Part shown: one piece after another, positions 6,219 to 32,416 of the stretch
How the letters are laid out: each line of letters begins with the position of its first letter
Position numbering within the stretch: the first letter of the stretch is position 1
From: Asterionella formosa
Lineage: Eukaryota
DNA length: 32,416 bases
NCBI GenBank assembly: GCA_002256025.1
Contig: NKIB01000458.1
Span: 1 to 32,416, forward strand
Direction: 5' to 3'
Position numbers and translations under genes: made by a program
Notes under the pieces: model-generated
The model's database searches: none
Seen by the model: the letters and a program-made list of their open reading frames with translations, nothing else
What the model was told of the DNA's origin: nothing

Positions 6219-6335
6219 CCGGTATGTATTGGTACCAGGTACCTGGTACCAGGTACAAGGTAAACCATACAGGTAATGGTAACCTACCTGGTAACATCGT
6301 GACCTGGTAACCTGGTACCAGTGGTACCAGGTACA
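6219..6335. repeat. GGTACC/GGTAAC-rich degenerate tandem cluster
   Basis: Repeated units such as ggtaccaggtacctggtaccaggtacaaggta...cctggtaacctggtaccagtggtaccaggtac. Similar clusters occur at about 13245-13310, 13888-13940, 14020-14036, 19733-19836 and 31818-31972. Confidence 0.75.
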
Positions 6336-11145: not shown

Positions 11146-12094
11146 CAGTTCTGATCATCAAAATGAGTATAACAAATTGCTTTCTTCTTTCACATCATCA
11201 TCACTTTTGTGGTTGCACAATCCAGAATCAAAGGCATATTGCTAAAATGATTCCTCATATACTTGTTGAGAAGAGGCAGTGACAAGAAAAAAGGGTCCTG
11301 ATGGATCTCTATTTTGCTGGAGATGGCCACAAGCAATAAATCGAAAAAGAACGAAAAAAAATTTTCAAATGTAGTTCCCCATTTTTTATCTTTTTATACA
11401 TTGAATTTACATGGATCTGTAGCTTGGAGCAAACCGCGCATTAGGGCTATTGAGCCTGAAAAAATCGTAGGAATCAAAATGGCCCTGGAGAAATTTGAAA
11501 TATCGATTCAACAAATACTAGACATTGGGACTGTCATACAAGAGAAATTACATGCATGTATAGATCATCAGTGGCGTCCTAAAACGACTAGTAAAAGACA
11601 TTGTAGTCATTGATTTTCTGAGTCTTTTTACTATTTTCAAGGACGGCGAGAAAAATCCGGTTCCGTTTCGCACATTTTCTTATTGGAACATTGCCCTTGC
11701 CTTTCCACAAAGTAATCGTACTCCGAAGGTGCTATTTCTGAGTACATTTCTCAGTTGCTTTGCTCCATCATTCCATGTACATTTGTGCATTTGAGTACCA
11801 GTACCAGGTAATAGTCTAATCTACACCATCCAATGTATTTTTAACTTGATCAACAATATGAGATTAAATTATTCTTTTAAGCTTACTTCTCCTGATCGTT
11901 ATGGAGGGCATCAATACACCAACAATGGGTGATGATTTGTTTTGACTTGTGAGTTTTAGGGGCTCCCGAAACTGAATCTATTTCTTGGTCTGAACCTACA
12001 TGAACCTACATGGTAATGAGCGGGACGAAAGGGAAATACTATTGGAATCCTATTTGAGGTTTCTCGTGCAATGTAAGAGATATATGAGTTAATT

Positions 12095-13093
12095 CTAATA
12101 TCTTTCATTCATTCGTTTCGCGACGTTTCTCATGGTATTGTACACTTTCCCAGGTGGTGCTCCCAGAATTAAATCACAAATAGCGTTTCGCGCCACCCTG
12201 ATATTCGCAAAACTGCCTAGCAAATGAATCCGAGTATCCGCGATGACAATTCGAGTCCTGGTAGCATTCTCAATGGCAAATCTAGTCTTTCCATCTTGAC
12301 CGGCAATTCGCCCAACGGCACGTGACAAGTGATCGCCCCTCAATAATTTGACATCAGTTACTTGAAAAGACTCTACAAAAAGGTCGTCCAACCGCAGCAA
12401 TGCGACAGCATCTTGTACTTCGAAGCCCAGCATGAATGCTGAACAGAAGTCAGCACCTTTTTGAAGAGCGCCAGAATCGATAGTATGTACGGACGTCTTC
12501 ATTTCAATAGATCGAGTCTTGGTATTGAATCGCACCTGTGAGCAATGAATAGGGAAAATATTTTAGAACGAGAAAGAAATTGACCATTTATTATTGTAGA
12601 ACCTCCACCCAACAAAGTAAATGCATCAGACTGCCACGTTGACGCGGCACCATGTAGTCCCAGACACGATGAGGCTTCCTGGAGGTTTGTGTCCGAAGAC
12701 GCCAAGAACAACTCAACGCGCTAATAATTTGGATTCTTGCTTCATATGCACGCATCTTCTCCTCCTTTCTCAAACATTTTGGCACTTGGTACCTACCTGA
12801 AGCTTGAGATATTCAACCAATGGAGTTAAAATTTGTTCCCAGGTATCTCGCAACGGTGTGTATCTATGCGGTGGGCATCGAACTCTGCGATACTCTGACT
12901 TGCCTTGTGATTGCTGAATCGCAGATAGCTGAGGAAACGTAGGCTGGTCGCCATCTTCCATGTCCACTTCTTTCTGGAGCGAAGTGCTCTGAAGGATTCT
13001 CGATTGAACGACGGATGGGTCAATTGTTGTTGCAGCACTGGACATGTCAATGTCGTGCATCGTCTCGACTTCCATATCAACTTCGGGAGTCAT
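12095..13093 (-). CDS. PNO1: Pre-rRNA-processing KH-domain protein PNO1/DIM2; exons 13093-12797 and 12535-12095
   Basis: EYRRVRCPPHRYTPLRDTWEQILTPLVEYLKLQ|VRFNTK...ALQKGADFCSAFMLGFEVQDAVALLRLDDLFVESF...HLSRAVGRIAGQDGKTRFAIENATRTRIV...GAPPGKVY. Phase-0 intron 12796-12536 (GTAGGT...CACAG, 261 nt). Confidence 0.95.
12592..12760 (-). ncRNA. Candidate intron-encoded box H/ACA snoRNA in PNO1
   Basis: On the sense strand: hairpin 1 closed by GAAGATGC/GCGTCTTC (12759-12752 with 12702-12695); H box ACACAA (12692-12687); hairpin 2 closed by ACCTCCA/TGGAGGT (12686-12680 with 12607-12601); then ACA (12597-12595) plus 3 nt. Confidence 0.6.
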
Positions 13094-13465
13094 GTTTCAA
13101 TTCACGGTTCGGCGGCTTGAACGTGTCAGTGGTGGTCTAGAGAGTTGACTGTAAAGTTAATATTGGGGACTTCAAAACTTAATCAATAACGAACGCAGAT
13201 TTTACGACCACTATGAATTATAATTCAATTATTTCGATTGACTATACCGTACCTGGTTACGGTACCAGGGTACGGTATGTAAACTGTACCGCTCACACCT
13301 GGTACCGATATGACTACATACCTCGGAACATGCATAAAATGGGTTTCTTTCTTCCTCTTGTCCATTTTTTACTGGTTCGTGTGCTCATCAGTCTGTCCAT
13401 AGCCACTCTTAGGTATCCCACCTTATGATATGCTCCACGCAGATGAGGTACCTGGTCCCATGGTA

Positions 13466-14865
13466 CCAGCAAGTTGCGGTCATTTTGCCGAAAATGGAAC
13501 GCGGCGCCGGCAAGCACTCATATTCGACTCCCCGCTAATATTACTTAAGCATTTAGAAAACTCTAACGGTTTCGCGCTGGCCAATAAATTTCATTATTAT
13601 CAAAATCTAATTTTAAAGAATAATTTTCTGAAGAAACCAGTTTCCGAACCTTGCTACCGGTACGATTGGGGGGTTTTGGATTGGGAGGTTTTCCCCCCAA
13701 TCACAATTTTGAGTTTCAAGACTCCTTATTCCAGAAATCTCCTAGTTTATATGCATTTCTATTTCGGTATAAGTCGTTGTGGTAAATATCGGTATGCATC
13801 ATACATAGGAGAACGACGTAGTACATCCATCTTGCATCCCTGTGTATGCATACCGGTATCAAATACCGATTCATAATGGAACCAGACTACCAGGTACCAG
13901 GTACCGGTACCGGTACCGGTGCCAGGGACCACCCTGGTACAATTGACTTCATGTCAGTTTATGGTTGTTAGTAAATAGCTACAAGCATGTATGTTCTTGG
14001 AACATGATGTTTGCCGGTTTGGTACCGGTACCGGTAACATCATGACAATGATGATACGCCTATTGTAAACAGATAAATCCCAAATTATAAACCAATTGTT
14101 GTTTTCAGCTTCTGATATTATAGAATATGTCTACTTGATGTACAACGGTTATGTACGAACTACTCGGGTTTTGATCCGGCAAGAAATCATGGAGATATTG
14201 TTGTTGCGGTCGAACGCCATGTTGCTTCCACCGATTTTCTATTTTAGCTATTTCGCAATGAATATCAAAGCTACGTGTTCGTTTCTTTCACTACTTGCTA
14301 GCGACACGTGTATTCTATCTAAGAAACTAATAATAATAGCGTTAAGCAGTTGTGTACAAAATCGAAAATTAATAATCAATTAATCATGGTAATGGGAAAT
14401 TTCTCATGTTCGTTCGATTCATGAGCGATTGTATAATTCTTATACCCGGTATGTACCAGTATGCAGAGAGCATACATATTATCCATATAACCGTATGTGC
14501 ATGTCCCGCTACCGGTATACCGGTATGTATTCCCGGACGTCTGCACTCCTTGGCGGGGGTCGACTTTCATGTTCTTTGATCTCTTGCCTTTGCCCGCATC
14601 TGACCCCGACGGAATCTAGCCCTCCGGTAAAACCCCCCAATTTCTTTTGGATTGGGGGTTTTTCGATTGGGGGAATGAGTTTGACCGTAATTTAGTTCCT
14701 GCCAAATCAAATTCTAGCATAATAGTATTCAAAACGATCATGCCACGAATGAAACATAACCGTTTTCCGAGCTAGCCAGATTCTATGTTTTAGTATTGGA
14801 TCTACAGGCGTGAATATCCGAGATGTCCAAATCGTCATTTCGGCAATTTTACCGCAACTTGCAGG
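13466..14865. mobile_element. 1.4-kb non-autonomous TIR element flanked by TA
   Basis: Left TA|CCAGCAAGTTGCGGTCATTTTGCCGAAA (13466-13493); right TTTCGGCAATTTTACCGCAACTTGCAGG|TA (14838-14865). This is a 28-bp inverted repeat with 4 mismatches. No recognisable internal ORF. Confidence 0.7.
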
Positions 14866-20088: not shown

Positions 20089-21941
20089 ATGTTTCATTCC
20101 TCTGTTTCGTATAGGCATGCAGCTCTTGTGCTGATGGTTTCACTGATGGTGCCCTTCACCAGCTGGGGTTGCACTGATGTTCTTGTAACTCCAGGTGCCT
20201 CGGACGATGGCTCGGCCATGATTGCCTATAACGCTGACAGTGGAGCTCTTATGGGATCCCTATACCATTATCCTGCTACGGAGGGAAGAGGCGGAGAGAT
20301 GAGACAAGTTTATGATTGGGATTCTGGTGTAAGTGGTGATTGAACCACCGAGTCCTACAAATCTACAGGAAAGTGCGAAGTTACTCATTACATCTTTCTA
20401 ACATCCCGAACCCGCATCAGCAATACCTTGGAAATATATCAGAGGTGAACCAAACGTACAATGTGGTTGGTAATGTCAACGAATTCGGTCTCTGTATCGG
20501 AGAGAGTACATTTGGCGGCCTTGAACTATTCGCCAAACAACTTGGGGCTGCTGTCGACTACGGATCCCTCATCTATATAACATTGCAACGCGCCAAGACG
20601 GCCCGTGAAGCGATTTCGATCATGGTAGCTCTAATGGACGAGTATGGTTACGCATCCGAGGGGGAATCTTTTTCAATTGCCGATCATTTGGGTGAAGTTT
20701 GGATCATGGAAGTGATTGGTAGAGGCGATACTGGAAGAAAGGGAGCAGTATGGGTGGCACTAAGAGTGCCAGATGGATACGTCACAGCACATGCTAATCA
20801 AGCCCGCATAACCACCTTTCCCCGTGATGATCCCAACAACTGCCTTTATGCTGATGATGTTGTGGATCTTGCAATTCATGCTGGCCTATTTCCCGTGGAC
20901 GCTGACGAGAATGAGTTTTCCTTTTCTGACATATACAATCCAGTTTCCTTCACCGGCGCGAGAATGTCTGAGGCACGAGTCTGGTCCATTTTTAGTCGCA
21001 TCGCTGATGAAGATGGCACCTTTCAAAATGAATTTGTTGACTATGCTGCTGGACGAAATCTGACACATCGGATGCCCCTTTGGATCAAGCCGTACAAGAG
21101 GCTACAACTAGTGGACTTAATGGCAGTCATGAGCAATCACTATGAAGACTCAGAACTAGACGCATCTTTAGATGTCGGAGCTGGCTTCTACAAGGATCCG
21201 TATCGTCCGCGCCCATTGCTATGGAAACACAAGGATAGCATGTATCACAACGAACGTACCGTTGGAACTCAGCAAACTGGATGGAACTTCATTGCTCAAA
21301 TGAGGAGTTGGATGCCTAGGGAGCTTGCTGCCCTTGTATGGTTCGCCGTCGACGATAGTTCGATGGCGCCTCGGGTGCCGGTATATGGAAGCAGCACTAG
21401 TATCAGTACGCCGTACTCGGGAAAAGGAAGCCAAGATGGAGTCGTAGAACCTGTCCTCAAATTCGACATTAAAAAAGCATTCTGGGTTCAGAATATGGTC
21501 TCCAACTTCGTTTATCCCAGGTTTGCGGAAATCTACCCTCATGTCAGAGACAAGATTGACCAAATTCAAGAAAAATATTTAGGAGAGACGGCGTTGACCG
21601 ACGAGAAAGCTTTGGAGTTATACAACAGTAATGGTCCGGGCGCAGCAATTGCATTTGTGACCAAATATGGCATAGGTGCGGGGGAGGAACTCCATGCACT
21701 ATGGTTCGAGTTTTATGGTTATCTATTTGCGCGTTTTCGGGACTTCTTTGATATTGTCCCTAACAGTGATAATCCTGGCTGCGGCTGCGAGGTGAAGGAG
21801 CCAGGCTTTACTGACGAGTGGAAACAACGAATCGTTGACGAGACTGGAAGCCACTACGAAGTTAAGTCGGGATCAATTATAAGTATGCCGAAACGTGTGA
21901 ATCTGAGAGCATCACAAACATCTGAAAAGAAAATGCAATAA
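20089..21941 (+). CDS. Peptidase family C69 dipeptidase (secernin-like Ntn hydrolase) with signal peptide; exons 20089-20328 and 20421-21941, 586 aa
   Basis: Hydrophobic leader then CTDVLVTPGASDDGSAMIAYNADS (N-terminal Cys nucleophile); GNVNEFGLCIGESTFGG, DYGSLIYITLQRAKTAREAI, GESFSIAD, HANQARI, EARVWS. Phase-0 intron 20329-20420 (GTAAGT...CTAAC...CAG) joins DWDSG|QYLG. Confidence 0.93.
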
Positions 21942-31720: not shown

Positions 31721-32416
31721 TCCCTGCATTCAATACTTTTGTACAGTGTAAAACGGATGACGGATTCTGATGGTTCATACCGTACTTAGCTTGAGGTCGG
31801 TACGTGATGCATTGGATGTACCGGTACCAGGCAACAGGTACCTGATAGGCACCTGACATCGAGCATTGATGTACCGGTAGATAAATAGAGAATTATACTT
31901 GACGGTACTTATGACTTACTATGATATTATGGAGTATCAATACCGGTACGAGGTACCAGGTACCTGGTACCTGATGGATGCGCATACATACATGTCAGTA
32001 CGTACCGGTGTGTTGTAGAATCTTGTCGGCATGAACTTTTCTTTGTCCTTGTCATTAAATATTGCGAAACCATATGATCGGTCTACATTTTGCCACGGCT
32101 CACCTTTGTCATTGCTAGCTACGGATGTGCTCATTTGTATGAAGCGATGATCGATTATCGCAGCAATCAACCGAAGTCCATGCTGTCTCGTCAATCTCTG
32201 AAATACTAGCTAGTAGTATGCAGCAAAATTGCGGGTGAACTTTGGGTTGTGGTATCTTGTGACAGTTGCATGTTGGTAATGCGACCACCATTCTAACAGC
32301 TCGTTGCATGTGTGGATGTGATTTTAAAATAGAATGTTGATGACTAGATATCATGACAGCCATGAAAATGTTCGTTTGATTATGTAGTCGTCTGATTTAT
32401 TCTGTTTACCATCCAT

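Follow-up and report, generated by a model that had tools for sequence, protein, structure and literature searches.

Does the 261-nucleotide (nt) intron in the PNO1 gene of the diatom Asterionella formosa hide an RNA, and if so, of which kind? The gene lies on the minus strand of contig NKIB01000458.1 (assembly GCA_002256025.1), of which positions 1 to 32,416 were analysed; this whole 32,416-nt stretch is called the window hereafter. From the comparison of this intron with its counterparts in other sequences, we conclude that it probably encodes a box C/D small nucleolar RNA (snoRNA) belonging to a family outside Rfam. The predicted RNA, about 131 nt long, would extend over 12621–12751 on the minus strand, its ends being placed by a terminal stem.

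The intron itself (12536–12796, minus strand, phase 0, GTAGGT..CACAG) lies between exon 1 (12797–13093, ATG at 13093), delimited by its open reading frame (ORF) and translation and covered by RNA contigs, and exon 2 (12095–12535), which includes the stop codon and carries a KH domain (Pfam PF22891, KH_PNO1_2nd; 2.7e-40 over 12098–12535). The closest named proteins are diatom PNO1s, from Seminavis robusta (91%), Nitzschia inconspicua (90%), and Chaetoceros tenuissimus, Phaeodactylum and Mayamaea (89% each). An earlier note on this DNA, made from the letters alone, had taken the host for PNO1 of a diatom, with which the Pfam match and the closest named proteins agree. The 261-nt intron that it proposed is confirmed by RNA contigs of three metatranscriptomic runs (X6, X7 and X8), which skip exactly 261 bases at the splice joint. 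The word depth of the spliced joint is 428, 320 and 441 in these runs, respectively, and the runs in which this stretch occurs carry lake or freshwater labels.

Using the exon-2 protein as a query against metagenome contigs, we retrieved 80 PNO1 loci as relatives. Searches with both exons (tblastn) showed a gap at the identical codon position in 25 of the 80 loci and no gap in 52, many of which are short contigs that may be complementary DNA (cDNA); in the other 3, exon 1 was off the contig. The gaps with clean GT..AG borders form a short class of 79–170 nt (L040, L025, L010, L019, L027 and L035/37/68) and a long class of 220–332 nt, which includes all the other such gaps. The layout of the predicted element recurs at this PNO1 intron in 10 other distinct sequences from metagenomes, and introns at this site measure 261–332 nt when they bear the element versus 79–170 nt when they are free of it. 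The element-bearing loci resemble raphid pennates by their best tblastn matches, which extend over about 147 residues and are not identifications: 98% to Seminavis (L003), 95% to Mayamaea (L012), 96% to Nitzschia inconspicua (L022) and 93% to Phaeodactylum (L016). The short-intron loci resemble Chaetoceros, with 100% identity to C. neogracile over exon 2 for L035/37/68 and 95–96% to the PNO1 of C. tenuissimus for L010 and L019, and the element is absent from the short intron of these Chaetoceros-like PNO1 loci. In a quick PNO1 tree of low resolution, 10 out of the 11 element rows and both degenerate ones (see below) fall in a group of 16 sequences (Shimodaira–Hasegawa-like approximate likelihood ratio test, SH-aLRT, 88), the window being placed in its sister group (SH-aLRT 89).

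Conservation within the intron is concentrated in one block. When compared with the long introns by blastn, the window intron matches only at intron positions 109–176, and the conserved block extends from about 5 nt upstream of the C-box-like heptamer to 4 nt downstream of an invariant GUCUGAUG. The identity to the window is 0.81 at intron positions 81–90, 0.71–0.77 at positions 111–130 and 0.80 at positions 161–170, and outside the block it is about 0.3 (positions 181–260) and 0.2–0.5 (positions 11–50). Since the exon-2 coding DNA of nine relatives, five of them with the element, is only 69–76% identical to the window, neutral sites are saturated. At much shorter distance, the record of strain X16 (about 98% identical, from another study), which covers 12536–12702 but not 12703–12764, has four substitutions and one 3-nt insertion listed in 12536–12606 and none in 12607–12702; one of its six differences is unlisted and may lie near the end of the record. 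This pattern gives a weak hint of constraint.

The predicted element is found once in each intron that bears it, in sense orientation (here the minus strand, for all features that follow). Its C box, AUGAAGC (12739–12745), is non-canonical at positions 5 and 7, while G3, A4 and G6 are invariant in all 11 sequences; the relatives display AUGAUGA (L016), GUGAUGA (L017), AGGAUGA (L003, L012), AGGACGA (L036), AGGAAGA (L008, L022), AUGAAGA (L026) and CGGAAGA (L055, L046). The D box, CUGA (12626–12629), is preceded by GU and invariant in the 11 sequences, as is the surrounding GUCUGAUG; CUGA is also found in L045, and CGGA in L060. The two strands of the terminal stem, UGCA (12747–12750) and UGCA (12622–12625), face each other outside the boxes. 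A C box, a D box and a terminal stem together form a kink-turn, and the layout is that of a C/D kink-turn because the covarying terminal stem of 4–6 base pairs (bp) brings C and D together. Going from C to D, the sequence first varies, then forms a long conserved hairpin, and ends just before D with a second hairpin that covaries. The long hairpin is made of a lower helix, H2b (UGAG, 12712–12715, with CUCA, 12670–12673), a 3x2 internal loop, and a helix H2, whose 5' strand UUCUUGGC (12701–12708) lies within the invariant block GUUGUUC and whose 3' strand UCCAGGAA (12676–12683) begins the invariant block GGAAGCCUC. The H2 loop (12684–12700) is variable in length; it contains the ACACAA once proposed as an H box, and an AAACC(C) motif recurs in it. 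The last hairpin, H3, occupies 12632–12649, directly upstream of box D. Across 11 introns, the C-to-D span is 114–125 nt and the D box stands 80–126 nt before the 3' splice site. We also considered H2 as a C'/D' kink-turn and rejected it on inspection: the helix is neither preceded by GA nor followed by a 3-nt bulge, and its pairs covary as Watson–Crick pairs.

This layout was evaluated on two alignments, A1 for the element core of the 11 distinct sequences and A2 for whole introns. RNAalifold run on A1 predicts the terminal stem, H2b, H2 and H3. In A1, 94.1% of the 253 cells of the layout are paired versus 29–51% with slid partners, and none of 500 shuffles reaches any of the five measures used; in A2, the proportion is 91.9% of 221 cells versus 34–52%. 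Compensatory changes, on both sides of the pair, affect 8 of the 23 pairs of A1. They involve 4 out of 6 pairs in the terminal helix (83% of cells paired) and 2 out of 5 in H3 (98% of cells paired), and one pair of H2b passes from C-G to U-A in two sequences; in H2, 97.7% of the cells are paired. Because G.U pairs occur in every helix, the sense strand is the folded strand.

A covariance model built on the element (R1; 137 positions, 21 pairs) was searched against the window and the 80 loci, i.e. 274,645 bases from 81 sources. It gave 17 hits at E<=1, all in the PNO1 intron, of which 14 are strong (97–126 bits) and 3 weak. The hits outside the training set are L060 (2.9e-5) and L045/L050 (0.004), and look like decaying or divergent variants: the copy at L045:2266-2500 keeps the internal hairpin and CUGA and lacks H3, and the one at L060:577-796 shows CGGA where the others have CUGA. 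With filters off, the window yields a single copy at 97 bits, the next hit scoring 12 bits, and no copy was detected within 2.5 kb of the short-intron or gapless PNO1 loci. These results bear on whether the extra length could simply be neutral sequence or a mobile element present in many copies, such as a miniature inverted-repeat transposable element (MITE). The ordinary energy of single-sequence folds would suit a sequence of this kind, but the invariant blocks and compensatory pairs persist at a coding identity of only 69–76%. Beyond the one copy in the window, none occurs elsewhere in the 242 kb of related loci, and no read or contig fitted two places. On the window and these related loci, we consider a neutral intron or a mobile element highly improbable.

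One copy, in L017, had first the appearance of an element moved upstream of PNO1 on the other strand, an interpretation that was rejected. The order along L017:1-313 is the reverse complement of the exon-2 start (bases 1–83), the 3' part of the intron with the element, and the spliced PNO1 messenger RNA (mRNA). Such an antisense copy of exon 2 at its head marks the contig as a chimera formed by fold-back, which joins intron-bearing RNA to spliced mRNA; in it, too, the element belongs to the PNO1 intron and precedes exon 2 by 96 nt. Head-to-head chimeras of this type are a trap for gene orders read from short assembled contigs.

The earlier note had read the intron as a box H/ACA snoRNA, with a hairpin, an ACACAA hinge, a second hairpin, an ACA box and a non-canonical pocket for ribosomal RNA (rRNA). 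All the strings that it named exist, namely GAAGAUGC (12752–12759) facing GCGUCUUC (12695–12702), ACACAA (12687–12692), ACCUCCA (12680–12686) facing UGGAGGU (12601–12607), ACA (12595–12597) and UGCCGCG-UCAA-CGUGGCA (12632–12649), and the excised 168 nt do give two hairpins. However, the supposed structured core does not fold better than shuffled sequences: z is +0.15 for the whole intron (106 of 200 shuffles equal or better), +0.24 for the excised 168-nt candidate (115 of 200 as good), -0.13 for its first hairpin and about -1.0 to -1.3 for the second. Its two basal stems are not conserved either, with 42.4% of 99 cells paired in nine orthologous introns (alignment A2) versus 31–43% for slid partners, and 54 of 500 shuffles do as well. 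The ACA lies in intron positions 191–210, where the identity to relatives (0.27–0.32) is that of the flanking background, and the same holds for the ACA taken with the 3' arm of stem 2 (0.27–0.36 at positions 181–210). Unconserved sequence thus holds the ACA as well as the outer arms of both stems (5' in stem 1, 3' in stem 2), and the hinge lies in the variable loop described above. In strain X16, a substitution at 12606 converts a C-G pair of stem 2 into C.A, and no compensating change is listed.

The guide strands of the H/ACA proposal fare no better. The first, CGUGCAUAUG, consists of the terminal stem and C box and is not conserved in the relatives, and the second, UUCUUGG, is one side of the covarying internal helix. 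The first 14 nt of the large-subunit rRNA motif invoked as their target were found in 5 of the 51 ribosomal DNA (rDNA) loci fetched, but the next 9 nt or so, which carry the second proposed pairing, differ in all five. Moreover, this pairing itself leaves 6 nt unpaired in the pseudouridylation pocket instead of 2, and the Rfam scan returned no H/ACA match, be it in the window at the gathering threshold or in the intron at E<=10. An H/ACA snoRNA at this place is extremely improbable. The extended second hairpin is the only conserved part of the earlier fold and corresponds to H3. The more general idea of an intronic snoRNA survives as well, in that the extra length corresponds to a conserved structured RNA of snoRNA kind in a ribosome-biogenesis gene, with C/D rather than H/ACA as its probable type. 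The single-sequence H/ACA reading was thus plausible yet wrong, and the hunch that an oversized intron hides an RNA was right.

Transcripts that contain the intron are present in the metatranscriptomes. A 316-nt unitig runs from exon 2 through the intron into exon 1 (12509–12824), with a mean word depth of 122, 42 and 60 in X6, X7 and X8, i.e. 0.29, 0.13 and 0.14 of the depth of the spliced joint. As the 3' flank (12000–12040) has a depth of 0 in the same runs, this intron-bearing sequence is RNA and not DNA carry-over. The chimeric L017 contig likewise shows the intron part with the element beside spliced PNO1 mRNA.

Several observations weigh against a box C/D snoRNA. Two positions of the window C box, one of them the final A, do not match RUGAUGA, and a fully canonical C box is found in only 2 of the 11 sequences (L016 and L017), the C-box side of L017 being possibly antisense of the untranslated region produced by the fold-back. 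Rfam gave no hit in the intron at E<=10, no match on the element in nine whole related loci, and only unrelated matches of 7–17 bits when the introns of L016 and L022 were scanned alone. The RNA evidence consists of contigs with one mean depth each, in which pre-mRNA, lariat and mature RNA are inseparable and ends unreadable. In addition, the ratio of intron to joint is equal in X7 (labelled 'cDNA', 0.13) and X8 (poly(A), 0.14), which come from one sample; this equality does not favour a very abundant non-polyadenylated RNA, because such an RNA should raise the ratio in X7, a run whose library type is unspecified. No rRNA site was both conserved among the rDNAs and paired by most of the homologues in a strict scan (at least 9 bp, at most 2 G.U, 11 homologues against 17 non-diatom eukaryotic rDNAs). 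Finally, every known copy sits in PNO1, which also fits a role in cis.

Rfam at the gathering threshold gave no hit in the window as a whole, and the named snoRNA families, including U3, U8, U13, U14 and U22, do not score near gathering on the element. Downstream of the element in L022, at positions 933–1022, there is a canonical-looking UGUGAUGA with weak Rfam C/D matches (SNORD19B, E 4.6; snoR126, E 2.5); this site has no CUGA and is probably a chance match. In the literature, a full-text search on diatom snoRNAs found no catalogue among the texts covered, whose supplements lay outside its scope (that of PMC4247016, for instance, might list the locus), and among the matches listed no paper was found that combines PNO1 with an intronic snoRNA or a snoRNA host gene. 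While the box C/D kind is well known, this member in the PNO1 intron appears to be undescribed.

The rDNAs used here to look for rRNA pairing were collected with the pattern of a published primer for the 3' end of 18S, which gave no hit in viral contigs and, within prokaryote assemblies, at least 51 stretches of contaminant eukaryotic rDNA; two of the units, L132 (18S, 5.8S and 28S) and L133 (5.8S and 28S), were annotated by Rfam. These stretches (L081–L133) thus lie within assemblies deposited as bacteria or archaea, and one metagenome-assembled genome, G003, has five separate contigs with an 18S 3' end. An ungapped scan of the homologues against the rDNAs was noisy and gave no shared site, and RNAduplex applied to the two conserved arms revealed no site common to homologues and rDNAs. 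The best conserved 18S site of the strict scan, UCAAGAACGA, present in 8 rDNAs, pairs with only 5 of the 11 homologues. The most suggestive candidate match associates CCCUCCAGGAAGC with the 18S string GCUUCUUAGAGGGA, which 9 of the 16 scanned rDNA loci contain, and amounts to 14 bp in L016 and to 7 bp, a C.A and 5 bp in the consensus; it overlaps the covarying helix and has no adjacent D'. For pairing with pre-rRNA or small nuclear RNA (snRNA), the stretches of the element that are of interest are GUGUUGUUC, GGAAGCCUCG and the AAACCC loop.

An ordinary 2'-O-methylation guide, directed by a degenerate D' box at a diatom-specific rRNA, a spacer or an snRNA, is one alternative to weigh. The C box, the D box and the terminal stem it needs are all there, D'-like strings (CAGA, CGGA or UGGA) stand 8–12 nt before the conserved block in several relatives, and CCCUCCAGGAAGC can pair with 18S. 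However, the stretch before the D'-like strings is unconserved even among the Nitzschia-like copies, and the covarying hairpin fills the position before box D. Looking for antisense in both usual places, we found this hairpin directly before D and, after C, a stretch that is unconserved even among close copies. As for the 18S match, it has a central mismatch, lies on the covarying helix without a neighbouring D', and was obtained with non-diatom rDNAs. We regard such a guide as unlikely. A non-methylating snoRNA, acting as a helper of pre-rRNA folding or processing or as a binder of a factor, is more likely, because no conserved antisense stretch was found by D or a D'-like box and what is invariant is helical, interrupted by an internal loop. 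For such a box C/D RNA, established snoRNA biology suggests that the spliced PNO1 intron lariat would be debranched and then trimmed by exonucleases, trimming being expected to stop at the core formed by Snu13, Nop58, Nop56 and fibrillarin on the C/D motif, so that PNO1 and the RNA would come from one transcript.

The strict association with PNO1 also invites another explanation, in which the kink-turn and hairpin would act in cis by binding a protein (Snu13 or PNO1 itself) and tuning PNO1 splicing. Read from exon 1, a retained intron brings a stop after 8 codons, and such transcripts would lower PNO1 output. The 14 strong and 3 weak copies, all in one intron of one gene, are in keeping with this, as are the scan of the 17 non-diatom rDNAs, in which no trans target was found, and the intron-bearing RNA, which reaches 13–29% of the joint depth with a poly(A) library included. 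There is precedent too, since intronic snoRNAs that regulate the splicing of their host have been reported (PMC10324135). Against this, both the arrangement of the element and its position relative to the 3' splice site are typical of ordinary intron-encoded C/D snoRNAs, and the Chaetoceros-like PNO1 genes keep an intron of 79–170 nt at this site without the element, from which it follows that the gene can do without it. A stable association with the host is reportedly also usual for intronic snoRNAs acting in trans (PMC2817437). Any resemblance of the invariant block to a PNO1 binding site on 18S is weak. No conserved pairing between the element and the flanking intron or exon sequence was found; a pairing of the element core with the end of exon 1 was considered and rejected, being of 5 bp only and, as judged by eye, unconserved. 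Altogether, we judge a cis-acting element improbable.

Between a trans-acting box C/D snoRNA and a cis element, a third arrangement can be envisaged, in which a guide-less C/D ribonucleoprotein (RNP) would be functionally tied to its host, its hairpin docking an assembly factor of the small subunit, possibly PNO1. We offer this arrangement as speculation, with little expectation that it holds. If true, the intron would deliver a snoRNA for 40S assembly in step with PNO1 or, alternatively, the RNP would sense free PNO1 or snoRNP proteins and set PNO1 splicing in an autoregulatory loop. It would explain both the 17 copies in one intron and the intron retention of 13–29%.

Elsewhere in the window, the introns available for comparison are ORF-joining candidates of 92 nt (20329–20420, plus strand) and 88 nt (27059–26972, minus strand), both GTAAGT..CAG. 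They fuse adjacent long ORFs in frame and fit the range of 88–101 nt given by the earlier note for the other introns, relative to which the PNO1 intron is plausibly oversized, the terms of comparison being candidates. The window also contains 28 copies of the palindrome GGTACC versus 3.1 expected, a number that none of 100 shuffles reaches. They form clusters, often in tight tandem, in intergenic regions (6231–6328, 13261–13467, 13893–14032 and 31823–31971, among others), some of them directly upstream of PNO1, and may represent a short repeat family or a regulatory motif.

With the predicted box C/D snoRNA, diatoms gain a family that is well supported, is described by a covariance model and has a fixed genomic address, the PNO1 intron that follows the ..KLQ codons. 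Its distribution is clear: it occurs in the lineage of the window and in loci with best PNO1 matches to Seminavis, Nitzschia, Mayamaea and Phaeodactylum, and is absent from the Chaetoceros-like short intron. Because it combines the lack of a recognisable guide with an invariant structured core, the element is a candidate for the small set of snoRNAs of pre-rRNA folding or processing, and transformable pennate diatoms allow a direct test.

The comparison with known systems summarises where this element stands. With box H/ACA snoRNAs, the window sequence taken alone shares two hairpins, an ANANNA between them and an ACA after the second, but none of these features is kept in the orthologous introns and the pocket geometry is wrong. 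With the reported intronic snoRNAs that act on their host (PMC10324135), the element has in common that it is strictly linked to its host and that transcripts with the intron are notably frequent; on the other hand, no conserved pairing of the element with its flanks was found, and the GAAGAUGC/GCGUCUUC stem is found in the window only and is unconserved. Intron-encoded box C/D snoRNAs are closer. The element resembles them by a C box and a CUGA close to the 5' and 3' ends, respectively, a short terminal stem that covaries, a single sense-strand copy per intron located 80–126 nt before the 3' splice site, and a host involved in ribosome biogenesis, and it departs from them by the lack of conserved antisense by D or D', the hairpin directly before D, a C box with mostly A at position 5, and a length (about 131 nt) above that of typical guides.

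The snoRNAs U3, U8, U13/snR45, snR4, U14 and U22 are longer than guide snoRNAs, possess conserved internal structured domains and do not owe their function to the D/D' guide rule. The Rfam models of these snoRNAs give no score on the element, and no pairing to conserved 18S, 5.8S or 28S that is kept by all homologues was found in the rDNAs scanned. The element is like them in its length and its internal structure and, probably, in acting otherwise than by a D/D' guide.

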